A DNA stretch of 20,597 nt, from contig JBIOIY010000055.1 in the NCBI GenBank assembly GCA_044450345.1, positions 1-20,597 on the forward strand, written 5' to 3'. Shown here in pieces: positions 1-19,602 of this stretch. The position numbers were made by a program, and so were the translations under genes. Numbering within the stretch: position 1 is the stretch's first letter; every line of letters begins with the position of its first letter. The notes beneath the pieces were generated by a model. That model saw only the letters and a list, made by a program, of their open reading frames with translations, had not been told where the DNA came from and ran no database searches. This DNA comes from Thermodesulfovibrionales bacterium (GTDB lineage Bacteria; Nitrospirota; Thermodesulfovibrionia; Thermodesulfovibrionales; UBA6898).

Positions 1-778
1 ACGCAAGATGCAAAGTGATCAGCGTATTGTAGAGTTCATCCGTGAGTACCGCAAGAAGTACGGGCGGATTGGCAAAGAGAAGCTTAAGGTACTTCTGGAC
101 GCATACTGTGCTGAGAAAGCTATGGTATCGGTATCTGAGTCCACAATTGGCAAGATCATAAAAAGAAACAAGTTCTTTCGGCAAAGCAACCCTGGGCGTG
201 TGTATCACGACCCAAGCATAAACAGACCAGAACAGCCCAGGCGGCAGCGTGTAAAGAAGGCACCACGGCATACTGAGCCTGGTCACATGCAGGCCGACAG
301 TTCAGTGGTCCACGAGGTTGGTACCACTCGTTATTTGATCTCAGCCGTTGATGTTGCCGCCAAGTTTGCTCTGACTGCCTGCTATAGCAGTCTTTCGAGT
401 CGCACAACTACGGATTTCATGAAGCGTCTGCTTTCGATAACGCCTGTTCCTATCAGATCAGTCCAGAGCGATAACGGGTCTGAGTTCCTAGGAGAGTTTG
501 ATGCATATCTCAACGCAATGAAAATCGAGCATCGCTTTAGTTACCCTCGCTGCCCGAAGATCAATAGCTGCGTGGAACGGTACAACAGAACTATCAAGGA
601 TGAGTTCGTAGCCCAAAATCTTGATGTGATACACGATCTCAGACTCTTTCGTCAGAGACTTGCTGAGTATCTCATCTTCTACAATTACATCCGTCCCCAT
701 AAAAGCCTATTCAAAAAATCCCCTATCCAAGCCCTCGCCGAAATTGGGGCAATGTCGAAAATGTTTGCAACTCATACA
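1..778 (+). mobile_element. Right part of an IS481-like insertion sequence; putative right end ...ATGTTTGCAACTCATACA
   Basis: The transposase runs into a sequence ending in ACA at 776-778, matching the 5'-TGT...ACA-3' ends of the IS481 family. The left end is outside the window, so the inverted repeat cannot be confirmed. Confidence 0.6.
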
Positions 779-787
779 CGTTCTTGA
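1..787 (+). CDS. IS481-like DDE transposase (integrase core), probably 5'-truncated by the window edge
   Basis: rve-type motifs HMQADS (D), VQSDNGSEF (D), SCVERYNRT (E) and YNYIRPHKSL. The frame is open upstream of ATG 8 to the window edge. Visibly more AT-rich than the downstream genes. Confidence 0.85.
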   Translation, partial: RKMQSDQRIVEFIREYRKKYGRIGKEKLKVLLDAYCAEKAMVSVSESTIGKIIKRNKFFRQSNPGRVYHDPSINRPEQPRRQRVKKAPRHTEPGHMQADSSVVHEVGTTRYLISAVDVAAKFALTACYSSLSSRTTTDFMKRLLSITPVPIRSVQSDNGSEFLGEFDAYLNAMKIEHRFSYPRCPKINSCVERYNRTIKDEFVAQNLDVIHDLRLFRQRLAEYLIFYNYIRPHKSLFKKSPIQALAEIGAMSKMFATHTRS

Positions 788-812
788 CAAGCGCTGAGGG
801 TTGCGCGAAAAT
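784..812 (+). promoter_or_regulatory. Putative sigma70 promoter of the aldehyde dehydrogenase operon
   Basis: TTGACA (784-789), 17-bp spacer, GAAAAT (807-812). RBS GGAGG precedes ATG 871. Confidence 0.5.
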
Positions 813-870: not shown

Positions 871-2361
871 ATGAAGATGTTCATAAAAAATTTCATTGAC
901 GGCCGGTGGGGCGACTCCGGCGCAGGAGAGACCTTCGAACGCATCAACCCGGCAGATACATCTGAAATCGTTGCGGTGGTCAGCAAGGCCGGCAACCGTG
1001 ACGTCGACAGGGCGGCAGAGGCGGCAAGAAAGGCGTATAACGGGTGGAGACATACCCCTGCGCCCAAAAGGGGGGAGATACTTTTCAGGGCGGGCGAGAT
1101 ACTCATGAAGAGGAAGAATGAACTCGGCGAACTCATGACGCGCGAGATGGGCAAGGTTCTTCCGGAGGCCCTCGGAGACGTGCAGGAGGCCATCGATATG
1201 GCCTTTTACATGGCGGGTGAAGGACGGAGGCTTTCAGGAGAGACAATCCCCTCGGAGCTTCCCGATAAGGACTGCAAGTCCGTACGCGTGCCGATAGGCG
1301 TCTGCGGGCTCATCACACCCTGGAACTTCCCCATGGCGATACCGGCCTGGAAGATCATGCCGGCCCTCGTCTCAGGCAATACGGTCGTTTTTAAGCCGAG
1401 CAGCCACACCCCTGCCTGTGCGGCCGGGCTGGTAGAAATACTTCAGGAGGCCGGACTGCCGGAAGGGGTATTGAACCTTGTGAACGGCAGCGGCGAAGAC
1501 ACAGGAAACTATCTTGCCTCCCATGAAGGGATAGGCGGCATTTCCTTTACAGGCTCGACTGCGGTAGGGTTGGGGATAGCGAAGATCTGCGCAGAGACTG
1601 GAAAGAAGGTGTCCTGCGAGATGGGCGGCAAAAACGCCATTATCGTTATGGACGACGCGGACCTGGACCTTGCGGTCGAAGGCGCGGTATGGGGCGGCTT
1701 CGGGACGAGCGGTCAAAGGTGCACCTCATCCAGCCGGATTGTCGTACACAGAAAGGTTTACGAAACATTCCTGCAGATGTTCTCTACGGCTGCATCAAAG
1801 CTTAGACTTGGAAACGGTCTCGATAAAAAGACCGATGTCGGTCCTGTCGTCAACGAGACACAGATGAAAAGGATACTTGACTACATAGAGATCGGAAAGA
1901 AAGAAGGGGCCGAACTTGTGACAGGGGGCGTGGCATGTAGGGAAGGCGAGTGCTCGCGTGGTTATTTCATCCTTCCTACAATCTTTTCCGGAGTTGCCCC
2001 CGGCATGAGGATCGCACAGGAAGAGATCTTTGGCCCTGTGGTCGCGGTGATCAGGGCAGAGGACCTGGACGATGCGATCCGGATAGTCAACGGCACTCCT
2101 TACGGACTCGTCTCCTCCGTCTATACGAGGGACGTGAACAAGTCCGCCGTCGCAGAACGCGAGCTCGATACCGGCATCGTCTATATCAATGCCTCAACGA
2201 TAGGCGCCGAGATCCAGATGCCCTTCGGCGGAACGAAGAAAAGCGGCTACGGGCATGAAGAGGCAGGGGGAAGGGGCGGCGCCCTCGACATGTTCACGAA
2301 GTGGAAGGTGATCTACAGAGACTTCAGCGGGAGGCTCCAGAAGGCCCAGATAGACAGATAG
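871..2361 (+). CDS. NAD(P)-dependent aldehyde dehydrogenase (possible glutamate-5-semialdehyde dehydrogenase)
   Basis: Motifs ITPWNFP, FTGSTAVG, CEMGGKN (catalytic Glu), GQRCTS (catalytic Cys), EEIFGPV and PFGG. Start moved to ATG 871 after GGAGG. Confidence 0.93.
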   Translation: MKMFIKNFIDGRWGDSGAGETFERINPADTSEIVAVVSKAGNRDVDRAAEAARKAYNGWRHTPAPKRGEILFRAGEILMKRKNELGELMTREMGKVLPEALGDVQEAIDMAFYMAGEGRRLSGETIPSELPDKDCKSVRVPIGVCGLITPWNFPMAIPAWKIMPALVSGNTVVFKPSSHTPACAAGLVEILQEAGLPEGVLNLVNGSGEDTGNYLASHEGIGGISFTGSTAVGLGIAKICAETGKKVSCEMGGKNAIIVMDDADLDLAVEGAVWGGFGTSGQRCTSSSRIVVHRKVYETFLQMFSTAASKLRLGNGLDKKTDVGPVVNETQMKRILDYIEIGKKEGAELVTGGVACREGECSRGYFILPTIFSGVAPGMRIAQEEIFGPVVAVIRAEDLDDAIRIVNGTPYGLVSSVYTRDVNKSAVAERELDTGIVYINASTIGAEIQMPFGGTKKSGYGHEEAGGRGGALDMFTKWKVIYRDFSGRLQKAQIDR

Positions 2362-2388
2362 ACGCAGAGACAGGAGGACAGGCAGCCC

Positions 2389-3672
2389 ATGGACGAGTAC
2401 ACCGACAGGGCGAAAGAGGTATTGACGAACGCCCTTGTTATGCATACCGGCATCGTCGCAAAAAAGGCGGACGGCATCTACGTCGAAGACCTGAGCGGCA
2501 GAAGGTATATGGATTTTACGTCCGGTCTCGCCACCGTGAATATCGGACACAACCACCCCGGTGTCGTTGAGGCGATAAAGAAGCAGGCCGAAAAATTCAT
2601 CCATTCCGGATGCATCTTTTACTACGAACCGCTGATCGTCCTTGCCGAGAAACTCGGGCAGGTGACTCCCGCCGGCCTCGATATGTTCTTCTTCAGCAAT
2701 TCAGGGGCAGAAGCGGTCGAAGGCGCGATGAAACTCGCACGGTACAGCACAGGACGGCAGGGCGTCATCGCGTTCACCGGCGGGTTCCACGGCAGGACCT
2801 TCGGCGCGATGAGTCTGACCACCTCGAGCATCAGATACCGAAGGGCGTATCATCCCTTTGTCCCTTCAGTCTATCACTCTCCTTACCCCTATTGTTACCG
2901 GTGTTTCTTCGGCCAGAAGCCGGCCACCTGCAGCATGGACTGTTATGAATATCTGGAGAGGCTTTTTACACATCTCATCCCTCCTGAGGAAGTGGCCTGC
3001 ATGATAATCGAACCGGTGCTTGGCGAAGGCGGTTATGTAGTGCCGCCGGAGGAGTTTCTTACGAGACTGAGGGCCCTCTGTGACCGATGGGGTATCCTCC
3101 TTGTACTGGATGAGGTGCAGGCAGGCATGGGAAGGACGGGGAAGTGGTTTGCCTCGGAGCATTTCGGGGTTGTCCCGGATATCATGACCGTCGCCAAAGG
3201 CATCGCGTCGGGCATGCCTCTGAGCGCGGTGGCATCAAAAAAAAGGATCATGGAGAAATGGCCCAAAGGCGCGCACGGTACGACTTTCGGGGGCAATCCG
3301 GTTTCATGCGCCGCCGCTGTTGCGACAATCGAGATCATAGAGAAGGAGGGTCTTCTCGCGAAGGCCATTCGGACCGGCGGGCATACCATGACAAGGTTGA
3401 GATCAATACAGGAGAGATCCCCGGCTATCGGTGATGTAAGGGGACTCGGCCTTATGATCGGCATAGAGTTTGTAACGGCATCGGGAGAACCCGACACCGC
3501 GGGCCTCAACAAGGTGATGCGGTACTGCCTTGAAAAAGGTCTGGTGCTTCTGGACTGCGGGGTGGATAAAAATATCATAAGACTGGCGCCTCCGCTGGTG
3601 GTGAAGGCTGAAGAGATAGACACGGGACTCGATATATTAGAGGAGGCGCTCAAAGCGGCGTATGGGGTCTGA
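2389..3672 (+). CDS. Class-III PLP aminotransferase (GabT / ornithine omega-aminotransferase-like)
   Basis: Motifs NSGAEAVE, FHGRT, EPVLGEGG, LDEVQAGMGRTG, AKGIASG (PLP lysine) and GTTFGGNP. RBS AGGAGG upstream. Confidence 0.92.
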   Translation: MDEYTDRAKEVLTNALVMHTGIVAKKADGIYVEDLSGRRYMDFTSGLATVNIGHNHPGVVEAIKKQAEKFIHSGCIFYYEPLIVLAEKLGQVTPAGLDMFFFSNSGAEAVEGAMKLARYSTGRQGVIAFTGGFHGRTFGAMSLTTSSIRYRRAYHPFVPSVYHSPYPYCYRCFFGQKPATCSMDCYEYLERLFTHLIPPEEVACMIIEPVLGEGGYVVPPEEFLTRLRALCDRWGILLVLDEVQAGMGRTGKWFASEHFGVVPDIMTVAKGIASGMPLSAVASKKRIMEKWPKGAHGTTFGGNPVSCAAAVATIEIIEKEGLLAKAIRTGGHTMTRLRSIQERSPAIGDVRGLGLMIGIEFVTASGEPDTAGLNKVMRYCLEKGLVLLDCGVDKNIIRLAPPLVVKAEEIDTGLDILEEALKAAYGV

Positions 3673-5014
3673 AATTCTGAAGAGACAGAAGGTCCTTATA
3701 ATGGGTGCTGCCGGCAGGGACTTCCATAACTTCAACATGGTATACAGGGGCGATCCCTCTTATGAGGTGGCGGCATTTACCGCGGCCCAGATCCCATTTA
3801 TCGGGGGAAGGACCTACCCTCCTGACCTCGCCGGACCGCTTTATCCGGAGGGGATCCCGATCTTTCCCGAAGAAGACCTGGAGAGGCTTATCCATCTGCA
3901 CGGCATAGAACAGGTGGTTTTTGCATACAGTGACGTATCGCATGAATATGTCATGCACAAGGCCTCCCTATGCCTTTCTCTCGGGACCGATTTTGTTCTT
4001 CTCGGCCCGGACAAGACATCGCTTGAATCAACCCTGCCGGTCATCTCCGTATGCGCCGTAAGAACAGGCTGCGGAAAGAGCGGGGTCACGAGATATATCC
4101 TTGGCGTGCTTAAGCAAAGGGGGGTGGTGCCCGTTGCGATACGACATCCCATGCCCTATTGCGACCTGGCGAAAAGCCGTACACAGCGGTTTGTGAAGAT
4201 GGAGGACCTGGACGAGCAGAGCTGCACGATAGAAGAGCGGGAAGAATTCGAGCCGCTCATCGAGGCGGGCGTCACCGCATACGCCGGCGTCGATTACGGG
4301 GCTGTTCTGAAGGATGCAGAGAAGGACGGCGGGGTCATCGTTTGGGACGGGGGGAACAATGACCTGCCCTTTATAAGGTCGGGTCTTGAAATCGTGTTGC
4401 TCGACCCTCACCGGCCGGGTCACGAGTTGTCCTTCTATCCGGGTGAGGCCAATCTGAGAAGGGCGGACATAGCGGTGATCAACAAGGTGGATACGGCAGA
4501 TGAGAGAAAGGTGAGTGAGGTAGCGGGAAACATCAGGATGGTCAATCCGGAAGCGATTATAGTCTATACAACCTCACCGATTAGGGCCGACTATCCTGAT
4601 AAGATAGCGGGAAAGAAGGTCCTCGTGATAGAGGACGGGCCGACGCTCACCCATGGCGGCATGGCGTACGGAGCGGGTTTTCTGGCAGCCGGGAAATACG
4701 GGGCGGCCGAGATCGTAGACCCGCGTCCCTACGCGGCAGGGTCGATCAGGGCGACCCTGGAAAAGTACCCCGGCATAAAGAATGTGTTGCCTGCGATGGG
4801 TTACGCCCCCGAGCAGGTAAGAGAACTGAAAGAGACGATAGAGCATGCGCCCTGTGATCTTGTGGTAATCGCCACTCCGATAGACTTGCGGCGGCTGCTG
4901 GACCTGAAAAAGGAATCGGTGCGAGTCAGTTACGAAATAGAGGAGCTCGACGGCATGGAGTTGAAAGGGTGTATCGAGGGCTTTATCGACAGCCACCTCC
5001 ATCTGGAGAGATAG
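3662..5014 (+). CDS. COG2403-type P-loop protein (often annotated GTPase or cyclic 2,3-diphosphoglycerate synthetase-like); likely arginine synthetase
   Basis: N-terminal GAAGRDFHNFN, P-loop VRTGCGKS, RHPMPY, CTIEEREE, WDGGNND and EDGPTLTHGGM. Overlaps the aminotransferase stop and lies directly before carbamate kinase. Confidence 0.8.
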   Translation: MGSEILKRQKVLIMGAAGRDFHNFNMVYRGDPSYEVAAFTAAQIPFIGGRTYPPDLAGPLYPEGIPIFPEEDLERLIHLHGIEQVVFAYSDVSHEYVMHKASLCLSLGTDFVLLGPDKTSLESTLPVISVCAVRTGCGKSGVTRYILGVLKQRGVVPVAIRHPMPYCDLAKSRTQRFVKMEDLDEQSCTIEEREEFEPLIEAGVTAYAGVDYGAVLKDAEKDGGVIVWDGGNNDLPFIRSGLEIVLLDPHRPGHELSFYPGEANLRRADIAVINKVDTADERKVSEVAGNIRMVNPEAIIVYTTSPIRADYPDKIAGKKVLVIEDGPTLTHGGMAYGAGFLAAGKYGAAEIVDPRPYAAGSIRATLEKYPGIKNVLPAMGYAPEQVRELKETIEHAPCDLVVIATPIDLRRLLDLKKESVRVSYEIEELDGMELKGCIEGFIDSHLHLER

Positions 5015-5046
5015 CGCGATGATAGAACAGAGACATCCCTCATAGC

Positions 5047-6006
5047 ATGAACGGACCCCTGAAAAACAGACTCTGCGTCGTATCCCTTGGGGGCAACGCC
5101 CTGATACGAAGGGGCGATAAGGGTACTATCGAGGAACAGTTCGCACACACCCGCGCATGCACAAAGCAGATATCCCGGATGGTCATGGACGGGTTCCGGA
5201 TTGTCATCACCCACGGCAACGGCCCGATCGTCGGAAACATCGTTATTCGGAACGAGGCAGCGAGAAATACTATTCCTCCCATGCCCCTGTATATCTGTGA
5301 TGCGGACTCAGAGGGCGGGATAGGGTATATGATCCAACAGACACTCTACAACAGCCTCAAGGGTATTCACGAGGTGAGAGACGTGGCTACGATCATTACC
5401 CAGGTCCTCGTCGATGGACAAGACCGCGCCTTCGAGGAACCGTCGAAACCCATAGGACCTTTTTATACGGAAGGCGAAGCAGGCGAGCTTGAAAGGACGA
5501 GGGGATGGATATTGAAGGAAGACAGCGGGAGGGGGTACAGAAGGGTTGTCCCATCGCCCCGGCCGAAGAAGATAATAGAGACGGAGGTGATCAGGCGTCT
5601 CGCCGCTCTCGGCGTCATCACGATAGCGGCAGGGGGCGGGGGTGTGCCGGTCGTCGAACTGGCTTCCGGCGATCTTCAGGGAGTGGATGCGGTTGTCGAC
5701 AAGGACCTTGCGACAGGTCTCCTAGCAAGGGAACTGGGAGCGGAATGCATTATCAACCTTACGCAGGTTGACAGCGTCTATGTCAATTACGGAAGGGACG
5801 GACAGAGGGCGCTGCGGGAGGTCGGTCTGGAAGAGATCGGCGCGTACTATGAACAGGGCCATTTCCCCCCTGGAAGCATGGGGCCCAAGATAGAGGCGGC
5901 CATCGGGTTTCTGCGGGCAGGCGGGAAAGAAGTTATCATCACCAGCCCGGAGCTTGTCGGAGAGGCGATGGAGGGAAGGGCAGGGACGAGGCTGCGGGCG
6001 GCTTGA
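5047..6006 (+). CDS. arcC: Carbamate kinase
   Basis: Motifs VSLGGNAL, THGNGP, KPIGPFY, RRVVPSPRP, GGGGVPV, DAVVDKDLA and GSMGPKIEAA. Confidence 0.95.
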   Translation: MNGPLKNRLCVVSLGGNALIRRGDKGTIEEQFAHTRACTKQISRMVMDGFRIVITHGNGPIVGNIVIRNEAARNTIPPMPLYICDADSEGGIGYMIQQTLYNSLKGIHEVRDVATIITQVLVDGQDRAFEEPSKPIGPFYTEGEAGELERTRGWILKEDSGRGYRRVVPSPRPKKIIETEVIRRLAALGVITIAAGGGGVPVVELASGDLQGVDAVVDKDLATGLLARELGAECIINLTQVDSVYVNYGRDGQRALREVGLEEIGAYYEQGHFPPGSMGPKIEAAIGFLRAGGKEVIITSPELVGEAMEGRAGTRLRAA

Positions 6007-6073
6007 TTCTATGTCAAAATGCCCGATAATAGTTGGTGAGAGAGCGATGAATTTATGAAGGGGGAATTGCAGG

Positions 6074-6934
6074 ATGCCTAAGAAGACAGAAACTCGTGCA
6101 CGTTTGACAAAGGATGAAAGGGCCTTCTCGTTCATTCCGCTCAATGACCGCGAAGGCAAACCGAGGAAACAGGGGATTACGGAAATGAGAGGCCCATACT
6201 ACACGCCAATGGGAAAGCGCTATCTTGAGGACATCCTTGAGACCATGGGGGCCTATGTCGATATCCTCAAGTTTGCGGGGGGGGCCTTCAGTCTCATGCC
6301 CCGCAAAGCGGTAAAAGAGCTCATCGATCTATGCCACAGGTACGATGTGCAGGTCGACACAGGAGGCTTTATCGAACATGTGCTTACGCTCGGCGCAGGC
6401 GCGGTCGATCGCTACATCGAAGAATGCAGGAGCCTTGAATTCGATATAGTCGAGATATCGGGCGGTTTCCTAAGTATCCCCGCAGATGACCTTGTTCGCC
6501 TTACTGAAAAAGTGCGGAAAAAGGGGATGAAGCCCAAAGCCGAGGTGGGTATCCAGTTCGGGGCAGGGGGAGCGAGCACGGTCGGGGAACTCGAGGCCGA
6601 GGGGACAGGGGATGTCGATTGGGCGGTCATGAGGGCGAAGAAGCATCTCGATGCCGGAGCATATATGATCATGATCGAATCAGAGGGTATAACAGAAAGC
6701 GTTAGTACCTGGAAGACGGATGTGATCTCTAAGTTCATCCGGGAGCTGGGGATCGAAAAGACGATGTTCGAGGCCGCGGAGCCGGAGGTGTTCAACTGGT
6801 ATATCAAGAACTACGGGCCGGAGATGAATCTTTTTGTCGACCACAGCCAGATCGTGCTTCTTGAATCTCTCAGGTCGGGCATCTGGGGGACGAAGAACCT
6901 CTGGGGAAGGGTCCTGACCTATAAGGGCCGCTAA
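6074..6934 (+). CDS. Phosphosulfolactate synthase family protein (ComA / HSA32-like)
   Basis: Motifs KPRKQGITE, VDILKFAGG, IMIESEG, MFEA and YGPEMNLFVDHSQIVLLESLRSG fit the ComA TIM-barrel family. Confidence 0.85.
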   Translation: MPKKTETRARLTKDERAFSFIPLNDREGKPRKQGITEMRGPYYTPMGKRYLEDILETMGAYVDILKFAGGAFSLMPRKAVKELIDLCHRYDVQVDTGGFIEHVLTLGAGAVDRYIEECRSLEFDIVEISGGFLSIPADDLVRLTEKVRKKGMKPKAEVGIQFGAGGASTVGELEAEGTGDVDWAVMRAKKHLDAGAYMIMIESEGITESVSTWKTDVISKFIRELGIEKTMFEAAEPEVFNWYIKNYGPEMNLFVDHSQIVLLESLRSGIWGTKNLWGRVLTYKGR

Positions 6935-7327: not shown

Positions 7328-8569
7328 TTAGACGAAGAGGCTTACTACGGCCCCTGTCATGCAGGTGGCCAATGTCCCGGCGACGAGGGCCTTTATGCCG
7401 AGGGACACCACTTCTGTCCTCCGTTCAGGGACCATGCTTCCCAGCCCCCCTATAAGTATCCCGAGGCTCCCGAAGTTGGCAAAGCTGCAGAGGGCGTATG
7501 TCATGATCAGCCGGGACCGCGGGCTCAGCAAGCTTGCTGGGGTCTTTGCGAGTTCGAGGAAGGCAAGCAATTCGTTGAGAATTGTTTTGGTCCCCATGAG
7601 ATAGCCTGCTGTTTGCGCCTCTGCCCAGGGGATGCCGAAAAGCCAGACGATAGGGGCCATGACGTACCCCAGGAGCATCTGCAGCGTAACCGCCCTGCCC
7701 GCTATCGCTGGGAGCAGGCCGAGCCCCTGATTCACGAGGTTGACCAAAGCGACGGCAACAATGAGCATCGCCACGATATTTATAAGGAGGGTAAGGCCGT
7801 CCAGGGTCCCTTTTGCGATCGCATCCATAGGGCTTTTCGCCGTCTGCGGCGGGGCAAGCGTCCCGGCGGTCTGTGCGCCGGTCTCAGGGATAATAATCCG
7901 TGAGACCGTTATCGCAGCCGGGATATGGATAAGTGAAGCTATCAGGATATGCCCGAGTGGGTCGGGGATGATCCCTTTCAGGATCGTAGAATAAAGCACC
8001 ATCACAGTGCCTGCTATAGATGCCATGCCGCAGGCCATCAGGGAAAAGAGTTCGCTCCTCGTCATCTCGCGCAGGAATGGTTTGATGATAAGCGGCGCCT
8101 CCACCATGCCGAGAAAGATCGTTGTCGATGCGCCCAGACTCAGCGCCCCCCCGAGGTTCAATGTTTTCCGAAAGAGAAGGGAGAACGCCCTGACTACTGC
8201 CGGCAGGATACGCCAGTAAAAAAGAAGAGACGATAACGCCCCGACCAATAGTACAAGGGGCAAAGCCTGGAATGCCAGCGTGTAACTCATGCCCGGGCTT
8301 TTTTCATCGAACGGGAGGGGGCCGCCTCCCAGATAGCCGAAGACGAAGGAAGTCCCTGCCCTTGTCGCTTCTTCGAGCGAAAGCACAAGGCCGTTCAAAA
8401 ACAAAAAAATCTGTTTGAAGATGGGAATGTTCAGAAGTATTGCGGCGATGACGAACTGGAGCACTACCCCTGCGAATATACCCTTATAGTTGACGCCCCT
8501 TCTGTTTTCGCTGACGGCCCAGGCTATGCCCAGCAGTACGACCAGTCCGGCTATCCCTTGAAGATGCAT
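7328..8569 (-). CDS. nupC: Concentrative nucleoside transporter (CNT/NupC family)
   Basis: Polytopic membrane protein with FVFGYLGG, FLGMVEAPL, MASIAGTV, GTKTILNELLAF and LCSFANFGSLGILIGG. Start set at ATG 8569 after a GGGGGA RBS. Confidence 0.92.
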   Translation of the reverse strand: MHLQGIAGLVVLLGIAWAVSENRRGVNYKGIFAGVVLQFVIAAILLNIPIFKQIFLFLNGLVLSLEEATRAGTSFVFGYLGGGPLPFDEKSPGMSYTLAFQALPLVLLVGALSSLLFYWRILPAVVRAFSLLFRKTLNLGGALSLGASTTIFLGMVEAPLIIKPFLREMTRSELFSLMACGMASIAGTVMVLYSTILKGIIPDPLGHILIASLIHIPAAITVSRIIIPETGAQTAGTLAPPQTAKSPMDAIAKGTLDGLTLLINIVAMLIVAVALVNLVNQGLGLLPAIAGRAVTLQMLLGYVMAPIVWLFGIPWAEAQTAGYLMGTKTILNELLAFLELAKTPASLLSPRSRLIMTYALCSFANFGSLGILIGGLGSMVPERRTEVVSLGIKALVAGTLATCMTGAVVSLFV

Positions 8570-8745
8570 TTCCAGTCCCCCGTGAGATGCGATTACTGTC
8601 AGTTTTGAAAATGGTAGATCTATGATAAATGCAGACCGCGAATAATTCAAATGAGAATATGGACCTTCTTAATAGCAGGACCGCCGCGAAGAGAACAATG
8701 TGGGCCGTAACCATCGGCTGGTCTTAGGCGTCTTATTTGATATAA

Positions 8746-8910
8746 AGTAAGGAAGGTGAAGACACTCAGCGAGTCCATATGATCCAGGACGTTCGTAGGC
8801 TGCTTACGCCGCAGCAGGTCCAGGAGCTGGCAGCAGTTAATGACGATGTAGTGAATATGAAGATTGACCGTCTCCTTTTGAGACTTGCGGGCATTGGAAG
8901 AAGGGGTTAA
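8746..8910 (+). pseudogene. 5'-truncated remnant or small protein of the Spy/CpxP (LTxxQ) family
   Basis: Frame absent from the ORF track: ...RVHMIQDVRRLLTPQQVQELAAVNDDVVNMKIDRLLLRLAGIGRRG*. ATG at 8779, in-frame stop upstream at 8743, ends 12 bp before the ECF sigma gene. Confidence 0.5.
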
Positions 8911-8922
8911 CACCAGGGTGGA

Positions 8923-9480
8923 ATGAGCGCACCAGAGGAGATGACAGACGAACGCCTCATCGAAATGGTCCTTTCAGGCAATGATGAGGCGTTCGCCGAA
9001 TTGGTGCGGCGGCATAAGAGGAAAGTGTTTACCATCGTTTCCAGACATGCCAGGGACGATGGCGAGCTCGATGATGTCTGTCAGGAGATATTTATTAAGG
9101 TATACCAGAACCTGAGAAAATATCGCGGCGACGCGCCATTTGAGCACTGGCTGTCCAAGATAGCGGTCAACGCGTGCTATGATATGCTTCGCAGGCGCCG
9201 GCCTGCCGGCGAAGAGGTGCCGTTTGAGACTGTTGAGTATTCACTGAGCAGTCCTTCGGGTGAAGAGATGGGGGGCAATGAGGCATGGGCGATCCTGAGA
9301 AATGCGCTGGCCAAACTATGTCCGGAGGACCGGATGGTGATTACCCTCCTGCATCTCGAGGAGAGGTCTGTGAGCGAAATCTCGGCCCTTACCGGATGGA
9401 GCGGGGCCAAGGTCAAGGTGCGTGCATTCAGGGCACGGAAGGGACTTAAAAGAATCTTGGAGGATAATGATGGAAGATGA
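8923..9480 (+). CDS. ECF-family RNA polymerase sigma factor (RpoE/SigW-like)
   Basis: Region 2 (DDVCQEIFIKVY, FEHWLSKIAVNACYD) and region 4 (SVSEISALTGWSGAKVKVRAFRAR). Confidence 0.93.
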   Translation: MSAPEEMTDERLIEMVLSGNDEAFAELVRRHKRKVFTIVSRHARDDGELDDVCQEIFIKVYQNLRKYRGDAPFEHWLSKIAVNACYDMLRRRRPAGEEVPFETVEYSLSSPSGEEMGGNEAWAILRNALAKLCPEDRMVITLLHLEERSVSEISALTGWSGAKVKVRAFRARKGLKRILEDNDGR

Positions 9481-9778
9481 TCCGAAGGATATAAAGCTTG
9501 AAAAGCTTTTTTCCGCTGCGCGACGGGCCGAGCTTTACGATACGAACATGGAATACGGATTTGAAACGCGCGTTATGGCAAAGATCCGGATGACGCGCGA
9601 AGCGGAGAAGCCGGTCCTTGTATGGGCGTGGAGACTCATCCCCGTCTTTCTCTCGCTCGTTGTTCTTCTGGGGATCTGGACCTCCGCGTCGGAGCCTCCG
9701 CATCTGACCGACCTGAGCGAGGTTGCCGCGATCGGCAATGAAGAGGCGATGCTCATGGCCTCTCTGACGGGTGAGTGA
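9470..9778 (+). CDS. Putative single-TM anti-sigma factor
   Basis: Overlaps the sigma stop, GGAGG at 9459-9463, GFETRVMAKI motif followed by a hydrophobic helix (LIPVFLSLVVLLGIW). Confidence 0.7.
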   Translation: MEDDPKDIKLEKLFSAARRAELYDTNMEYGFETRVMAKIRMTREAEKPVLVWAWRLIPVFLSLVVLLGIWTSASEPPHLTDLSEVAAIGNEEAMLMASLTGE

Positions 9779-9779
9779 G

Positions 9780-10169
9780 ATGAAACAATGGAAAGCGATA
9801 GCGAGCGTTATCCTGGTGTTTTTGCTCGGCGCGATGACGGGCGCTCTGGTGACCCATACTATTTACAGGCAAAAAATGGAAAACATAATCAAAGATGAAC
9901 CAAGGACAATAAGGGAGGTCATTGTCCAGAGGCTGGACCGAAAGCTTAGCCTCGACCCGGCTCAATTAGAACAGGTGCGCGCGATCGTAAGGGAGACACA
10001 CTCTGAGATGAAGAACGTGCGCAAACAGATCAGGCCCCAGATAGATGAGATACTGACGCGTTCTCAGGCCAAAGTTCGTGCCATACTGCGTCCTGACCAG
10101 CTTGAGAAGTATGAAAAAATACTCGCTGAACGAAAGAAGAGACGTGAGACTGAGGAAAATAATAAATAG
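9780..10169 (+). CDS. Exported helical protein, Spy/CpxP or periplasmic heavy-metal-sensor-like
   Basis: N-terminal hydrophobic anchor, LSLDPAQ and ILRPDQLEKY (LTxxQ-like) motifs. Third gene of the ECF cluster. Confidence 0.7.
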   Translation: MKQWKAIASVILVFLLGAMTGALVTHTIYRQKMENIIKDEPRTIREVIVQRLDRKLSLDPAQLEQVRAIVRETHSEMKNVRKQIRPQIDEILTRSQAKVRAILRPDQLEKYEKILAERKKRRETEENNK

Positions 10170-10289
10170 GCAGCAGAGGTTTTTTGTTAAAAAAAAGTTA
10201 AGAAATTGACGGAAATGTACGATAATGGCATTAAGGATTGTGAGTCGCTCGAAAAACGGCGGCAGTTGACAAAAAGAAAGGGGGTTGAG

Positions 10290-10634
10290 ATGTATTATTC
10301 ACGAGACAGGATTTTGTTGTGCAACGTCTGTAAGCGGGAATACACTTCCTTTCACTTTGAAGCCAGACCTGGGCACAAGGTGTACGTCTGCAAGGACTGC
10401 CTCGACTCGGCAATGTCCAATTTTATCTGGATATGCCTCAACTGCGGGAACTCCTATCACAGGCCCAAGGAAGTAGTTATGGGCAGGATCTATGATTACG
10501 GCATCAAGGAGGCTTCTTTCCTTTGTGAAAGCCAGATCATCCAGGGGATCGATGCCTGCATGCAGTGTAATCCTGAGCTAATAGCAGAATATTCGGGCAA
10601 GTTGAGGGATTGTGCGTTATTACCCTCGAAATAA
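10290..10634 (+). CDS. Hypothetical Cys-rich (4 x CxxC) metal-binding protein
   Basis: CNVC, CKDC, CLNC and CMQC. ATG 10290 follows AAAGGGGG. Confidence 0.7.
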   Translation: MYYSRDRILLCNVCKREYTSFHFEARPGHKVYVCKDCLDSAMSNFIWICLNCGNSYHRPKEVVMGRIYDYGIKEASFLCESQIIQGIDACMQCNPELIAEYSGKLRDCALLPSK

Positions 10635-10723
10635 TTAATTTCCAAAAATCCTGAAGGACGCTCATTCGCATCCGCACCGGCGAATACAAGATATTCGGCT
10701 TTCTTTCCCACAGGTTCCTATCC

Positions 10724-10764
10724 TTTACCCCGTTAGAATGTCGATGGCCTTCTAACGGGGTTTA
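10724..10764. repeat. 41-bp palindromic dispersed repeat, copy 1
   Basis: TTT-ACCCCGTTAGAA-N11-TTCTAACGGGGT-TTA with a perfect 12-bp stem. Same arms at 19603-19643. Confidence 0.9.
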
Positions 10765-10816
10765 CAAAGAGTTCCCTTTTATTTATCATTGTACATATGC
10801 GAAAAGGACGACCCAC

Positions 10817-12550
10817 GTGAAGACCCTCCGGCTTGCCCTTGCCCAGATCAATCCCACGGTCGGAGACCTTGCCGGCAATTCAAAAAAAATCCTTGAATAT
10901 GTGAAAAAGGCGAAACGTAAAAAAGCGGATATCGTTGTCTTTCCCGAGCTTGCAGTTACAGGGTACCCGCCGGAAGACCTCGTGCTCAAGCCGCAGTTTA
11001 TATCTGATAATATCGCTGCAGTAAAGAAGATCAGCCGCGGGATATCCGGGATAGTCGCGGTGACCGGGTTTGTCGACCGGGGGAAGGGCGGAGATATTTA
11101 CAATGCAGCGGCCCTTATCGCGGAAGGACGTATCGCAGATGTCTACCACAAGATACTGCTTCCGAACTACGGGGTCTTCGACGAGTTCAGATATTTCAGG
11201 CCCGGCCGGAGGTCGCCGGTTTACCAGCTCGGCAGGGCAAAGGTCGGGATCAATATATGCGAGGACATTTGGCACAGTCAGGGGCCCGCCTGTGCGCAGT
11301 CCCTTGCGGGGGCCGAGCTTATTTTGAATATAAACGCTTCGCCGTACGAGCGGGGGAAACCCGAGACCCGTGAGAAGATCCTTTATAAGAGGTCGACAGA
11401 AAACTCCCTGATGATAGCATATGTGAATACCGTCGGCGGCCAGGATGAGTTGGTATTCGACGGGCTCAGCATGGTCTTTGACCACAGGGGCCGCAAGATC
11501 GCCGCGGGAAAGCAGTTCGTGGAGGAGATGATGGTTGTCGACTTGGACCTGGGGGAGACAAGAAAATTCAGAAGAGAAAAGGCATCAAAAGAGGGGCGTG
11601 TGTCACGGGCCTTGACCTGCCCCGCGAAAAAAGTGCGGATACCTTCGCCTGAATTCTCCTGCCGTAGGCCCGCGCCCTGTTCGGTGGAACCCCGTCTGGC
11701 AAAGGATGAGGAGATTTACAGGGCCCTCGTGCTCGGTACTTCAGACTACGTAAGAAAGAACGGATTTAAGTGGGTCGTTATAGGCCTCAGCGGCGGGATC
11801 GACTCTTCTCTTGTTGCAGCGATAGCAGCCGATGCAATCGGGAAAGAAAATGTGACCGGCCTTTTTATGCCTTCGCAGTTCACTTCACGTGAAAGCAGGG
11901 AAGACGCGTATGGACTTGCAAAGGGTCTGGGCATCGGGATAAGGGAAATATCCATCAGCCGCGTCCTGGAGGGATATCTGAAGGAACTCAACCCCCATTT
12001 CAAGGGAAGAGAGAGGGACATCACTGAGGAAAACCTCCAGGCCAGGATAAGAGGGAACCTCCTTATGGCCTTTTCTAACAAATTCGGCTGGCTCGTCCTC
12101 ACGACGGGGAACAAGTCGGAGATGAGTGTGGGGTACGCCACTCTCTATGGCGACATGGCAGGCGGTTTTGCGGTTATAAAAGACGTGCCGAAGACTCTCG
12201 TGTACGACCTCTGCAGGTGGAGAAATTCAGCCCGTGAGGCGCCGGTGATACCAGCCAGGGTCTTATTGAAGGAGCCGACGGCGGAACTGAGGCCGGGACA
12301 GAAAGATACCGATACGCTTCCGCCCTATGAGGTCCTCGATCCTGTGCTTAAGGCCTATGTAGAGGATGAATTGAGTTTCGAGGAGATCCTGAAGCTGGGC
12401 TGCGATAATGAAAGTGCGCGCAAGGTCATCCGCATGGTGGATAAGAGCGAATATAAGCGTAGACAGTCACCTCCGGGCATAAAGATCACCGCCAGGGCGT
12501 TCGGCAGGGACAGGCGCTTTCCTATAACAAACAAGTACAGGAGTTACTGA
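10817..12550 (+). CDS. nadE: Glutamine-dependent NAD+ synthetase
   Basis: Nitrilase domain with E-K-C triad (FPELAVTGY, YHKILLPNY, ICEDIW) fused to a synthetase domain (GLSGGIDS, ENLQARIRG, TGNKSE, GYATLYGD). GTG start. Confidence 0.96.
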   Translation: MKTLRLALAQINPTVGDLAGNSKKILEYVKKAKRKKADIVVFPELAVTGYPPEDLVLKPQFISDNIAAVKKISRGISGIVAVTGFVDRGKGGDIYNAAALIAEGRIADVYHKILLPNYGVFDEFRYFRPGRRSPVYQLGRAKVGINICEDIWHSQGPACAQSLAGAELILNINASPYERGKPETREKILYKRSTENSLMIAYVNTVGGQDELVFDGLSMVFDHRGRKIAAGKQFVEEMMVVDLDLGETRKFRREKASKEGRVSRALTCPAKKVRIPSPEFSCRRPAPCSVEPRLAKDEEIYRALVLGTSDYVRKNGFKWVVIGLSGGIDSSLVAAIAADAIGKENVTGLFMPSQFTSRESREDAYGLAKGLGIGIREISISRVLEGYLKELNPHFKGRERDITEENLQARIRGNLLMAFSNKFGWLVLTTGNKSEMSVGYATLYGDMAGGFAVIKDVPKTLVYDLCRWRNSAREAPVIPARVLLKEPTAELRPGQKDTDTLPPYEVLDPVLKAYVEDELSFEEILKLGCDNESARKVIRMVDKSEYKRRQSPPGIKITARAFGRDRRFPITNKYRSY

Positions 12551-12732
12551 TGGAAGAGCTGAGGGTTTGTCAGAGCTGTGATTACCAGAAGGGTTTCCAT
12601 CTCTATTTCAAGAAGGTCAGGGGACGGATCAGGATATGTCTTATCTGTCCGAAATGCGGGCAGTCATATGATGTGGGTTGGTCGACCTCGACCATCAAGT
12701 CATTTAAGACAAAACAGGGGATAATCTACTGA
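12550..12732 (+). CDS. Small zinc-ribbon-like hypothetical protein
   Basis: CQSC and CLICPKC. 1-nt TGATG overlaps with both neighbours. Confidence 0.7.
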   Translation: MEELRVCQSCDYQKGFHLYFKKVRGRIRICLICPKCGQSYDVGWSTSTIKSFKTKQGIIY

Positions 12733-12983
12733 TGAGGCCGGCGCATATACTCCTGACGGCGACCCTGCTGCTCTTCTCTGCGTTCCCCGCATTTCCCTCG
12801 GCGAAAGAGGACTTTCCCATTAAAAAACAGCCTGAGCTCCAGCAGATCAAACCGAAAAAACCCGTCAAGATCAAGCTGAAGAGGACCGCCAAAGACGAAT
12901 ACAGCTGGGAGCTCAGCGGCGACGACGTCGAAGAGATCGTCAGGACCGACCACCGGCTGAGAAAGCTGCTGAATGTCAAATAA
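12732..12983 (+). CDS. Small exported hypothetical protein
   Basis: Signal-peptide-like N-terminus (MRPAHILLTATLLLFSAFPAFPSA); coupled to the upstream ORF. Confidence 0.7.
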   Translation: MRPAHILLTATLLLFSAFPAFPSAKEDFPIKKQPELQQIKPKKPVKIKLKRTAKDEYSWELSGDDVEEIVRTDHRLRKLLNVK

Positions 12984-13007
12984 TCCGTCCCGCATTCTCA
13001 AATAGAC

Positions 13008-13838
13008 ATGGCCAAAGGCACGCTGTACATTGTATCCACGCCCATAGGCAACCTGGAGGACATCACCCTTAGGGCAATTCGCATCCTCAAAGAGGTCGAC
13101 GTGATCGCTGCGGAAGATACGAGACACACACTTAAACTTCTGAACTATTACGGAATATCAAAGCCCCTGATCAGCTATTGGGGGGAAAAGGAAAGGGCGA
13201 AGGCTGAAGAGGTAATGGGGAGACTCAGTACGGGGAATTCAGTCGCGCTCGTATCCGACGCGGGGACGCCCGGCATCTCCGACCCGGGGAGTGTGCTGAT
13301 AAAGAGGGCCATCGAGGAGGATATTCAGGTAGTGCCCGTGCCCGGGCCGACCGCCCTGATCGCAGCGCTTACCATATCAGGGTTTTCAACCGAGGAGTTT
13401 GTCTTTTGCGGGTTTCTGCCTGCGAAGCAGTCCCAAAGAAGGAAATTTCTGGAAGAGTTGAGCCTCGAACGAAGAACCGTCGTAATTTATGAGTCGCCGC
13501 ACAGGGTCCTTGAGTCCATGGCTGAAATAGCGGATATTTTCGGCGAAAGGAGCATGGTCCTGGCGAAGGAGATCACGAAACTTCATGAGGAGGTCTTAAG
13601 AGGAACCGTGTCCGGGGTATTCGCGAGCCTCGGGGAGTCAAAGATCGTAGGTGAATATGTCCTGGTCATCGAAGGCAACCCGGGGGTGGAAAGCGGACAT
13701 CGGGAGGAAGACGCGATAAGGGAGATCAGGTCGCTTATGAGAAAGGGCCTGGGCAGAAAAGATGCGGTCAAACGAGTTGCCGAGCAGTATGGACTGAGCA
13801 GGAAAGAACTCTACGACCGGAGTCTGGAAGGGGATTGA
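13008..13838 (+). CDS. rsmI: 16S rRNA (cytidine1402-2'-O)-methyltransferase
   Basis: Motifs LYIVSTPIGNLEDITLRA, AAEDTR, LVSDAGTPGISDPG, YESPHR and EITKLHEE. Confidence 0.96.
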   Translation: MAKGTLYIVSTPIGNLEDITLRAIRILKEVDVIAAEDTRHTLKLLNYYGISKPLISYWGEKERAKAEEVMGRLSTGNSVALVSDAGTPGISDPGSVLIKRAIEEDIQVVPVPGPTALIAALTISGFSTEEFVFCGFLPAKQSQRRKFLEELSLERRTVVIYESPHRVLESMAEIADIFGERSMVLAKEITKLHEEVLRGTVSGVFASLGESKIVGEYVLVIEGNPGVESGHREEDAIREIRSLMRKGLGRKDAVKRVAEQYGLSRKELYDRSLEGD

Positions 13839-13842
13839 CATT

Positions 13843-15369
13843 ATGCTCCTCCACCAACATTTTGTCCGCATCGCAAAGAGATTCGGCGGTAAGCCCGCTT
13901 TTATAGACCGGAGCGCAGACAGGCGCGTCACGTATTCAAAGGCCCTCATCACTTCTCTCATCCTCGCCGAGAAATTCAGGAGATATGAAAAGAGACACGT
14001 GGGCATTATGATCCCGACTTCGGCCGGCTGTTCACTTTCGGTCCTCGGCGTGCTGATGAGCGGGAGGACGCCTGTCATGATCAATTATTCAACGGGTGCG
14101 GAACGGAACGCCCGGTACGCCCAGAAGAAGTGCGGGTTCAAAACTATCGTCACGTCAAAGGCACTGCTTGAGAAGATCGGTTGCCGTGCAGTCGACGGGA
14201 TGGTCTTTCTTGAAGACATCATGGCAGGGGTGTCGATTACAGACAAATTGAGGGCTTGCCTTATCGCTAAACTTCCGGTCCCGCATATCCTCAAAAGGAT
14301 TCACGCAGGAGATGAAGATGACGACATTGTCATCCTCTTTACGAGCGGGAGCGAAAAAGACCCGAAGGCGGTCGAGCTTACGCACAGGAATATCGCTTCG
14401 AATATCCGAAGTTTCAGCAAGGTCGTGACGCTTTCCCATGAAGACCGGATGCTCGCCAATCTCCCTTTCTTCCATGTGTTCGGCCTGACTATCAACATGT
14501 GGACGCCCTTGTTCCACGGGATGACGGTTATCACCTATGCCGACCCGCTCGATTACCGGGTGATCTGCGATATTACAAGGGAAGAAAAACCTTCGATAAT
14601 GGTCGGCACCCCGAGTTTCTTATGGGGGTACCTTCGCAGGTCCGAAAAAGGTGATTTCAAGAGTCTGCGCCTTGTCATCAGCGGTGCGGACAAGTGTCCG
14701 GAAGCGCTCAGGGAAGGATTTTACAGGGAACACGGCATAACACTTCATGAAGGTTACGGGGCGACCGAGACGTCTCCGGTGATCTCGACCAACACCCCTG
14801 ACTGCAACAGGCAGGGCAGCATCGGCAAAGTACTGCCGGGCGTGCAGGTGAGGATCGAAAACTATGAGACCGGCGGGGACTGTCTTCCCGGGGAATCGGG
14901 GCGGATCATGGTAAAGGGCGACATTGTGATGAAGGGTTACTTCAATGACTTCGAAGAGACCTCAATGCGCATCCGTCACGGATGGTACGACACCGGAGAC
15001 ATGGGGTTTGTCGACGAGGACGGGTTCCTCTGGCATGCGGGAAGGCTCAGGAGGTTCATAAAGATCGGCGGGGAGATGGTCTCCCTCGTCAACGTGGAAA
15101 ACGTGTTGGAAAGATTCCTTCCGGAAAACGTGTCCTGCTGCGTGGTCGAGGTCCCGGACCCGGGCAAAGGTGCGAAGGTTGTTGCGGCCGTGACGAAGCC
15201 GATCGACGGGAAGAAGATAGTGAAGCAGATGGCCGGACATCTTCCGAATATCGCCCTCCCGAGGCAGATGGTGGTCATAGAAGAGCTCCCTAAGATGGGA
15301 AGTGGAAAGATAGATTTCAGGGCCGTGACGGAAATGGTGAACGAACGGCTGCGGAAAAAGTGTCCCTAA
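13843..15369 (+). CDS. AMP-binding acyl-ACP/acyl-CoA synthetase, Aas C-terminal-domain-like
   Basis: Motifs LFTSGSEKDPKAVELTHRN, LPFFHVFG, EGYGATETSP, WYDTGD, KIGGEMVSL and LPKMGSGKIDF. Confidence 0.9.
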   Translation: MLLHQHFVRIAKRFGGKPAFIDRSADRRVTYSKALITSLILAEKFRRYEKRHVGIMIPTSAGCSLSVLGVLMSGRTPVMINYSTGAERNARYAQKKCGFKTIVTSKALLEKIGCRAVDGMVFLEDIMAGVSITDKLRACLIAKLPVPHILKRIHAGDEDDDIVILFTSGSEKDPKAVELTHRNIASNIRSFSKVVTLSHEDRMLANLPFFHVFGLTINMWTPLFHGMTVITYADPLDYRVICDITREEKPSIMVGTPSFLWGYLRRSEKGDFKSLRLVISGADKCPEALREGFYREHGITLHEGYGATETSPVISTNTPDCNRQGSIGKVLPGVQVRIENYETGGDCLPGESGRIMVKGDIVMKGYFNDFEETSMRIRHGWYDTGDMGFVDEDGFLWHAGRLRRFIKIGGEMVSLVNVENVLERFLPENVSCCVVEVPDPGKGAKVVAAVTKPIDGKKIVKQMAGHLPNIALPRQMVVIEELPKMGSGKIDFRAVTEMVNERLRKKCP

Positions 15370-15426
15370 TTCATGTATCATTTTGATAAGAGAATATATC
15401 TGAGGATTGTTTTTTAAGGAGCGGAC

Positions 15427-16548: not shown

Positions 16549-16585
16549 AAAAAAGTGCTGCTGCCCGTGGGATGTGGGCAGCAGC
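16547..16585 (-). terminator. Intrinsic terminator oriented for a minus-strand transcript
   Basis: Perfect 10-bp stem GCTGCTGCCC/GGGCAGCAGC (16557-16585). The A8 run at 16547-16554 gives a U8 tail on the minus strand; the plus strand has only TT after the stem. Confidence 0.75.
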
Positions 16586-16611
16586 TTAGGGGAGGTAACG
16601 AGGCGCTTAAT
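16547..16611 (-). ncRNA. Candidate ~65-nt small RNA with an anti-SD motif
   Basis: Minus-strand promoter TTGACT-N17-(TGg)TTTTAT at 16646-16618, a body containing ACCTCCCC, then the terminator. No ORF. Confidence 0.5.
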
Positions 16612-16736
16612 GGTTATATAAAACCAAACTCTGGGGGCAAAGTCAAGTAAAAAAAACAGGTAGCCTATTAATTCTAACTTTAGAAACTTTTTGCCTTTTT
16701 TTGTTTCGGCAAGTGTCAGGCCTTTCCCTTTCGGCG

Positions 16737-16765
16737 TTGTAATTTGGCATGATATTGATTATGCT
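16737..16765 (+). promoter_or_regulatory. Putative sigma70 promoter giving a leaderless transcript
   Basis: TTGTAA (16737-16742), 17-bp spacer, TATGCT (16760-16765). Predicted +1 falls on the A of ATG 16772; no SD present. Confidence 0.45.
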
Positions 16766-16771
16766 ACTTTT

Positions 16772-17440: not shown

Positions 17441-17625
17441 CAGGGCGGCATCGTCGGTCCCATTGGAGTATAGGTTCGTTAACCAAGCACTTTTCCTGCA
17501 CCACGCCACAGGTCAATGATTTTCGATTAAACAGCCTTTCAGACTTAATGATTGACAAGGGAAGTTTTTATATGATAATTATGATAATTAGTCTTATAAA
17601 GGAATGGTCTTTTAAGGAGGAAGAA

Positions 17626-18558: not shown

Positions 18559-18607
18559 TGCCTCTAAGCAGAGCTTTCGGGCAAAAATAACAAAGAGGAG
18601 GCTCTCT

Positions 18608-19582: not shown

Positions 19583-19602
19583 TGGACTCCCTTTATAGAA
19601 GA

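Follow-up and report, generated by a model that had tools for sequence, protein, structure and literature searches.

What pathway is encoded by four adjacent genes when homologues of two of them are named 'predicted GTPase' or 'cyclic 2,3-diphosphoglycerate synthase' in one case and '4-aminobutyrate aminotransferase' in the other? The genes lie in a 20,597-nucleotide (nt) stretch of DNA from a Thermodesulfovibrionales bacterium (hereafter the window), which is contig C55 of a genome assembly, G000, of 3.19 Mb and 91% completeness; their nearest named homologues are from Nitrospirota (Nitrospiraceae, Candidatus Sulfobium and Thermodesulfovibrionales). They encode an aldehyde dehydrogenase (ALDH), a class-III aminotransferase (AT), a P-loop protein (gene 3) and a carbamate kinase (CK). 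In an open reading frame (ORF) check, all four were open and intact on the plus strand at the coordinates of table 1, with intergenic distances of +27, −11 and +32 nt, in agreement with an earlier, sequence-only reading that had described them as tightly packed. The same reading had proposed that arginine is converted to citrulline with a gain of ATP, that CK yields a second ATP and that AT and ALDH take ornithine to glutamate. We also find this kind of arginine-to-glutamate catabolism, built on an arginine synthetase, to be the probable function of the operon. Standard annotation misses it, as had been expected, under the names given above.

Table 1. Features of the window discussed in the text (positions in nt; lengths in amino acids, aa).
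Feature	Position	Strand	Length	Basis
Aldehyde dehydrogenase (ALDH)	871-2361	+	496 aa	PF00171
Class-III aminotransferase (AT)	2389-3672	+	427 aa	PF00202; NF005993, 634 bits (cut-off 574)
Gene 3, P-loop protein, ArcE orthologue by sequence	3662-5014	+	450 aa	Similarity to ArcE and tree
Carbamate kinase (CK), ArcC	5047-6006	+	319 aa	TIGR00746, 378.1 (cut-off 358.25)
Candidate sigma-70-like promoter	784-812	+		TTGACA, 17 nt, GAAAAT; 10/12
Gene of the ComA (phosphosulfolactate synthase) family, perhaps a fifth operon gene	6074-6934	+		PF02679, 262.8 bits
IS481-family element, 3' part, outside the pathway	1-778	+		ORF 8-787 matches NF033577

The argument turns on gene 3, which has no match in NCBIfam and matches the Pfam family CobW only below threshold. 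According to the available text of a report published in 2024, the arginine synthetase ArcE of Thermococcus kodakarensis (TK2200) catalyses Arg + ADP + Pi <-> citrulline + NH3 + ATP, has low similarity to cyclic 2,3-diphosphoglycerate synthetase (cDPGS), with LpxK found as a fold relative, and has homologues (BLASTP E < 1e-100, length > 380 aa) in many bacteria, including Nitrospira, Geobacter and Desulfovibrio; the legend of its figure S2B, on arcE gene clusters, names arcA-D, arcR, nhaC3 and arcE (PMC11032458). The reaction and pathway given in the sequence-only reading agree with this account. We anchored the comparison to TK2200 by its primer sequences. The exact forward primer had no match in a scan of genome contigs, and a looser primer-derived pattern returned 14 loci, two of them in Thermococcaceae. 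Among 97 Thermococcaceae genomes, the forward primer was matched in nine, the reverse primer exactly in four genes and both exactly in three. Over 435 aa, gene 3 shares 58.4% identity (541 bits) with L083, which has both primer sites exactly and is a primer-anchored stand-in for TK2200, not a named TK2200 record. Identity to all nine primer-matched genes is 56.8-58.4%, and gene 3 and L083 agree in 145 of the 149 columns that are at least 80% conserved in a 48-row alignment. A tree of 57 rows (a quick IQ-TREE search, the careful maximum-likelihood search being unfinished) separates six cDPGS from the rest by a long branch (SH-aLRT 100) and places gene 3 within the ArcE clade, where the sequence-only reading had expected it. 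Judged by its sequence, gene 3 is an orthologue of the arginine synthetase ArcE, and conversion of arginine to citrulline with gain of ATP is its very likely predicted step.

A structural model of gene 3 built from the 48-row alignment had a pLDDT of 94 (38.6 for a single-sequence AlphaFold model). Its nearest folds are cDPGS (Foldseek E 5.5e-19) and LpxK (3.9e-9), at 15% identity, and no solved ArcE structure was found among the structures searched. ArcE homologues of 650-770 aa, which may be fusions, occur among the cluster representatives (P0127, P0134 and P0140), and a search of plasmids returned three records, all haloarchaeal.

The company kept by arcE is consistent from genome to genome. 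The order ALDH-AT-arcE is contiguous in 13 of the 20 regions around arcE matches of the same phylum, and AT-arcE is found in a 14th that is cut by the contig end; since these genes recur together across related regions, their grouping is not a matter of chance. Of 41 relatives, 14 have arcE, 13 have AT and 12 have both; CK was found in 10, each of which also has arcE. A sample of 251 genomes from another phylum (which includes Candidatus Zymogenus and is presumably Desulfobacterota) has 54 genomes with arcE and 21 with a window-type ALDH, 16 of the latter with arcE, and the AT family NF005993 (the PRK08117 subfamily) is over its cut-off in five, all five with arcE and an adjacent ALDH; these counts, like those for the 41 relatives, come from related genomes, are not a statistical test and overstate the association. 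In 201 genomes of a Chloroflexota-centred phylum NF005993 had no match, and the controls were likewise silent. CK was not found in four of the 14 arcE genomes among the relatives. At L054 and L062, for example, arcE is directly followed by a ComA-family gene and CK was not found in the genomes (93% and 96% complete). The conserved core is ALDH-AT-arcE, and CK, hence the second ATP, is optional or lineage-specific.

The pathway would run as follows. By orthology to TK2200, ArcE would carry out Arg + ADP + Pi -> citrulline + NH3 + ATP. The ArgF encoded on contig C32, an ornithine carbamoyltransferase (OTC), would work in reverse (citrulline + Pi -> ornithine + carbamoyl phosphate), and CK, as expected from its family, would convert carbamoyl phosphate + ADP to ATP + NH3 + CO2. 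From the gene context, AT would then transfer an amino group from ornithine to 2-oxoglutarate, giving glutamate and glutamate-5-semialdehyde (GSAL), and ALDH, from its residues and context, would oxidize the semialdehyde to glutamate with formation of NAD(P)H. We consider the AT step likely and the ALDH step a little more so. The net reaction would be Arg + 2-oxoglutarate -> 2 Glu + 2 NH3 + CO2 + 2 ATP + NAD(P)H. The OTC reaction is thermodynamically unfavourable in the citrulline-splitting direction. CK and the AT/ALDH pair would remove both of its products and so pull it forward, which would account for the genes of the last three steps travelling with arcE. In genomes lacking CK, carbamoyl phosphate would go to pyrimidines or to hydrogenase maturation, both of them uses shown for T. 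kodakarensis.

What links AT and ALDH to ornithine is the gene content of other arcE loci. The genes found beside arcE elsewhere include a RocD-type ornithine aminotransferase (L141; TIGR01885 score 550, cut-off 378), an ornithine cyclodeaminase dependent on nickel-pincer nucleotide (L148; TIGR00300 score 500, cut-off 411) and OTC (L142 and L045). At four further loci (L137-L140), the gene after arcE encodes a class-III aminotransferase, divergent in sequence, that has an AGTDF loop and an insertion of 11 residues, a candidate ornithine aminotransferase of another type. As all of these occupy the slot beside arcE, ornithine enzymes appear to be interchangeable there. Proline dehydrogenase provides a second link. 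The gene order is ALDH, (rubrerythrin-like gene), AT, arcE, proline dehydrogenase in G478 and G508, with one further inserted gene in the latter, and ALDH, AT, arcE, CK, proline dehydrogenase in G006; in G386, the gene right after ALDH encodes proline dehydrogenase. The operon's monofunctional proline dehydrogenase is the only PF01619 match in G478, G508 and G006. In these three genomes (completeness is available for G006 only, 98%), no canonical Δ1-pyrroline-5-carboxylate (P5C) dehydrogenase passes the TIGR01237 cut-off and the best match is the operon ALDH; the second matches are lactaldehyde-dehydrogenase-like (four of the five second matches were scanned). Since the only proline dehydrogenase joins the operon in genomes in which a canonical P5C dehydrogenase was looked for without success, the ALDH may well fill that role.

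Other genes also adjoin these loci. A rubrerythrin-family gene lies between ALDH and AT in the five genomes of the other phylum (L135:4824-5321, L136:2902-3408, L176:990-1472), and several such loci have an 82-83 aa Cys-rich ORF with no Pfam match (L174:3577-3825). Genes resembling aspartate ammonia-lyase adjoin arcE in three genomes (L102, L111 and L125); cyanophycin breakdown yields aspartate and arginine. A complete arcE-arcC-OTC operon is found on a contig of Candidatus Nomurabacteria (Patescibacteria; L045:3992-7312).

The residues of ALDH are consistent with a GSAL substrate. Its closest structures in the Protein Data Bank are those of a Thermus enzyme, ALDHTt (6FJX/6FKU), described in the available text as having broad specificity, with no physiological substrate named there (PMC6127216), and it is 39% identical to the GSAL dehydrogenase domain of the PutA encoded by G000 itself. 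The accessible part of PMC5786444 describes the GSAL-binding set of PutA and ALDH4A1 as a Glu, a basic residue before the catalytic Cys, a Ser or Thr after it, a Gly-Ala anchor loop and two Phe. The matching residues in ALDH are E106, F153, R283-C284-T285, G445-A446 and F452. In an alignment of 11 rows, the G000 PutA domain among them, E106, F153, C284, G445 and F452 do not vary, and conservation reaches 90% or more at R283, T285 and A446. ALDH7A1, an aminoadipate-semialdehyde dehydrogenase, has the same anchor loop (PMC5786444), hence these features cannot separate GSAL from aminoadipate semialdehyde. We conclude that ALDH is probably a non-canonical GSAL (P5C) dehydrogenase. In another genome, which lacks arcE, a window-type ALDH (57% identity) is fused to an enoyl-CoA hydratase domain (L182:493-3192), so the ALDH group also serves other pathways.

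AT is the weakest link. It is probably an ornithine δ-aminotransferase, an assignment that rests on gene context. Its identity to a TK2101-like protein of G210 (44-45%), to a racemase-like paralogue (42%), to ArgD (40%) and to the RocD of L141 (32%) does not decide its substrate. It scores 536.5 against PRK05769, short of the cut-off of 552, and TIGR01885, the RocD family, does not appear in its list of the 25 best families. AT retains K270, R136 (in FHGRT), E213 and R398, which we take to be the pyridoxal-phosphate lysine, the carboxylate-binding Arg and the Glu/Arg switch; such an Arg presumably favours an omega-amino acid over a diamine.

Several observations weigh against this pathway, and we discuss them with the alternatives on which they bear. 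The first alternative accepts ArcE and CK as proposed and makes AT and ALDH a pair acting on 4-aminobutyrate (GABA), 5-aminovalerate or lysine (through 2-aminoadipate semialdehyde), with substrates that might come from the turnover of polyamines or lysine, and merely co-regulated with arcE. AT forms a clade of its own (13 rows, support 100; FastTree tree of 42 rows), apart from TK2101, RocD and ArgD. Where PH1423 and the TK2101-like protein have HAAGTDYY/SLTDFFY, it has HSGCIFYY, a hydrophobic loop devoid of Asp, as in GABA aminotransferases; the missing Thr-Asp pair reportedly binds the alpha-amino group of ornithine in PH1423 and TK2101. The TSRAF motif of RocD and the SN motif of ArgD are also missing. 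ALDH reaches the cut-off of none of the NCBIfam families listed, those of GSAL dehydrogenases included (420 against 660 for TIGR01237 and 451 against 648 for NF002852). Its anchor loop GAEI with a Phe at +7, together with W160, is in our view reminiscent of ALDH7 or aminoadipate-semialdehyde dehydrogenases. PutA with its own GSAL dehydrogenase domain is present in 10 of the 11 relatives that have the operon ALDH, so that this activity is already supplied in most of them. PutA passes its intermediate through a tunnel (PMC5786444, as far as its available text goes), and such channelling could leave room for a free-standing GSAL enzyme. A Lys/Orn decarboxylase gene lies beside a spermidine-synthase-like gene on contig C69 of G000, which would suit polyamine or GABA metabolism. 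The database label of the AT homologues, 4-aminobutyrate aminotransferase, has little weight because PH1423 and TK2101 carried GABA aminotransferase or hypothetical annotations before testing and take ornithine and lysine, according to the accessible parts of PMC6047364 and PMC9986279. The use of lysine, tabulated in the latter, would suit a lysine pair; as a side activity it is also compatible with arginine catabolism.

Against such a pair, ALDH retains the Glu in contact with the alpha-amino group as well as the basic residue ahead of the catalytic Cys, and falls far below the cut-offs of the succinate-semialdehyde and Δ1-piperideine-6-carboxylate dehydrogenase models. The pair would also leave aside the proline dehydrogenase that shares the operon where no other P5C dehydrogenase was found, and the recognizable ornithine enzymes that hold the same slot elsewhere. 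Overall, we consider it unlikely. The part of the sequence-only reading that leads from ornithine to glutamate is thus sustained by the slot, by the proline dehydrogenase link and by the GSAL-binding residues, and is weakened by the lack of the Thr-Asp loop in AT.

The second alternative concerns the direction of the pathway: the operon would be mainly anabolic, with ArcE and CK fixing ammonia cheaply into carbamoyl phosphate and arginine, or ArcE would mainly supply ornithine, proline and carbamoyl phosphate instead of energy. The available text of PMC11032458 states that ArcE works in both directions in vitro as well as in vivo, and the T. kodakarensis enzyme provides proline and carbamoyl phosphate. 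CK is dispensable among the relatives, ProC is present, and the operon includes no arginine transporter. Cyanophycin synthetase was not found in G000 either, which leaves the source of arginine for a catabolic operon unexplained. The dependence on OTC is a further difficulty for catabolism. G000 has a single OTC, the ArgF at C32:19675-20568, which is over its cut-off, adjoins argD and is unlinked to the operon. The five other operon-bearing genomes tested have exactly one each, and none was found in the 20 regions around arcE matches of the same phylum. For the pathway, the biosynthetic ArgF would therefore have to run backwards, and, as far as the gene content tells, one OTC would have to serve both directions beside ArgG and ArgH.

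The enzymes of the host nevertheless make an anabolic or supply role quite improbable. ArgG, ArgH, CarA, CarB, ArgB, ProB and ProC are over their cut-offs in G000, and PutA is present. The accessible text of PMC11032458 argues that an ArcE beside ArgG and ArgH is catabolic; given ArgG, ArgH and CarAB, this is the likely direction in G000. The operon itself contains oxidative enzymes, with ALDH first and proline dehydrogenase added elsewhere. The ALDH reaction is essentially irreversible. In T. kodakarensis, CK failed to replace carbamoyl phosphate synthetase (CPS). Arginine deiminase (PF02274) has no match in G000 at its 91% completeness, as the sequence-only reading had anticipated, and the only match among 41 relatives is a 293-aa protein that covers profile positions 122-289. 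No motif match was found in G000 for arginase, agmatine deiminase, urease or ArgR, a weak negative because the motifs for ProA, ArgC and ArgJ were also missed. The CK of the operon is the sole copy in G000. The proposal that arginine yields ATP twice is therefore supported with qualifications: ArcE orthology and the catabolic setting support it, while CK lies outside the conserved core and the operon includes no OTC.

The third alternative starts from differences within ArcE. Compared with 28 others, the 22 AT-linked ArcEs have G141/V142 for Q/T and C167 for G, and have lost Q172; their subclade no longer has the QT that is otherwise conserved behind the P-loop GKS. In the 57-row tree it forms a clade of 14 rows with support 99. 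This subclade, of Nitrospirota and related anaerobes, could use another guanidino compound, such as 4-guanidinobutyrate, and feed a GABA-type shunt through AT, whose loop is of the GABA type, and ALDH; if so, the operon would represent an ATP-conserving degradation route not yet described. The same clade includes arcE genes without a window-type AT, however, and the near-complete agreement of gene 3 with the TK2200-primer gene at conserved columns speaks for arginine. TK2200 is specific for L-Arg and rejects agmatine, guanidine and D-Arg, according to the available text of PMC11032458. The carbamoyltransferases of G000 are OTC and one weaker protein resembling aspartate carbamoyltransferase, and none was found that would split carbamoyl-GABA. 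We consider this alternative very improbable. Finally, that gene 3 is a cDPGS or a generic GTPase, as its database names and nearest solved folds would have it, has next to no probability, since a solved cDPGS matches it with E 3e-4 over about 160 aa (one of the six cDPGS of the tree, a true member, matches with 1e-153), its identity to six cDPGS is 22-26% in local matches against 57-58% to Thermococcales ArcE, and the cDPGS identity is ruled out at the sequence level by this partial, weak match and the long, fully supported branch.

The surroundings of the operon bear on its regulation. A mechanical ORF call opens ALDH at TTG 784; GGAGG at 860-864 and the starts of relatives favour ATG 871. 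The promoter-like site upstream is the best of the scan, and its TTGACA and the downstream TTGCG..AAAT are kept in eight of ten aligned upstream regions; taken together, the sites number no more than expected by chance (four, against 4.2 in shuffles). The same scan of promoters and terminators, at chance level overall, found no convincing terminator delimiting the operon. The IS481-family element, single-copy in the assembly, ends 5 nt ahead of the −35 box, and similarity to the relative L053 starts at 779. The contig begins within this element; upstream sequence present in relatives is cut off at this point, and the regulation of this copy of the operon may differ. In L053 (about 4640-4790), L054 and L055, a conserved G+C hairpin by an A run, then a conserved stretch with AGGAGG and an AT-rich motif, lie 100-350 nt 5' of the operon; these elements could represent a small RNA or the terminator of a gene on the minus strand. 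An upstream hairpin of the L053 type had no blastn match in G000. On the other side, the ComA-family gene lies 67 nt 3' of the operon and scores 89.5 with TIGR03849, far below the cut-off of 280 for archaeal phosphosulfolactate synthase. It follows arcE or CK in six of 20 related regions (one of another family), and is 80-95% identical among relatives, more conserved than the operon genes. A promoter-like site at 6003-6030 (9/12) may make it independent of the operon.

The remainder of the window (7328-20147) encodes a NupC-type nucleoside transporter, an extracytoplasmic function (ECF) sigma factor with small neighbours, a glutamine-dependent NAD synthetase, an AMP-binding enzyme, a DUF362 ferredoxin protein, a Crp/Fnr regulator, a small COX1-like membrane protein and two proteins judged by eye to resemble tetratricopeptide repeat (TPR) proteins. 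We take 13008-13838 to be probably an RsmI-like gene; 10206-10634 and 12732-12983 had no Pfam match.

Arginine catabolism through ArcE would imply that arginine-making bacteria obtain two ATP from the breakdown of arginine to glutamate with a borrowed biosynthetic OTC. ArcE, its spread to bacteria and the logic of the pathway are already published, so that the operon is a variant of a known pathway and the gain is incremental. The literature covered, which yielded two papers on T. kodakarensis and one on modelling and mostly leaves out subscription journals, contained no bacterial ArcE operon with AT and ALDH and no bacterial ArcE assay. The present analysis contributes an identity test anchored on primer sites, a core of ALDH-AT-arcE in which CK is optional, the proline dehydrogenase link and the finding that AT, by its sequence, fails the membership tests of both known types of ornithine aminotransferase. 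We lean slightly towards the view that the operon gives functions to two uncharacterized groups of enzymes: ornithine aminotransferases of a third structural type, and P5C dehydrogenases of a non-canonical family that has ALDHTt as a relative. This would provide substrates for an AT clade labelled as GABA aminotransferases and for an ALDH group that fills the P5C dehydrogenase gap in genomes with monofunctional proline dehydrogenase. It would also correct the labels of cDPG synthase or GTPase in many genomes, to judge from the frequency of arcE in the 251 sampled from one phylum. The role of ArcE outside T. kodakarensis, a question posed in the accessible text of PMC11032458, becomes testable with four soluble proteins. 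The ArcE reaction has one curated enzyme, which is archaeal (PMC13763154), and a presumably mesophilic ArcE would be of interest for arginine engineering.

The closest known system is the arginine synthetase pathway of T. kodakarensis, which, in the available texts, consists of ArcE (TK2200), ArcB/OTC (TK0871), ArcC (TK2158) and the ornithine aminotransferase TK2101 (PMC11032458, PMC13260591). The two have in common an ArcE orthologue (58% identity), CK, the lack of arginine deiminase, a single unlinked OTC and an omega-aminotransferase after ornithine. Here, however, the system is bacterial and operonic, CK is variably lost, AT is of a different clade without the T-D loop, and ornithine would be oxidized to glutamate by the linked ALDH instead of being used for proline. 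The host also has ArgG, ArgH and CPS, whereas T. kodakarensis has no competing ArgG/ArgH. The arginine deiminase pathway (arcABC/D) shares the sequence from arginine through citrulline to ornithine and carbamoyl phosphate, and then to ATP by CK. The operon differs from it in having no ArcA, catabolic ArcB or ArcD antiporter; ornithine would be oxidized and not exported, with one ATP more. The roc-type arginase route of Bacillus uses RocF, RocD and RocA. It resembles the proposed pathway in converting ornithine to glutamate through glutamate semialdehyde, and a RocD-type ornithine aminotransferase is found beside arcE in G433; entry here would be by ArcE and OTC instead of arginase, and AT and ALDH are outside the RocD and RocA families. 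ALDH has in common with ALDH4A1, the PutA domain, RocA (TIGR01237) and ALDHTt the Glu, the basic-Cys-Ser/Thr arrangement, the Gly-Ala loop and an aromatic box, and is set apart from the RocA and PutA types by its TIGR01237 score and its identity to the PutA domain of its own genome. As for gene 3, cDPGS and LpxK are distant P-loop fold relatives from which it is separate as a family, and they are the origin of its misannotation.

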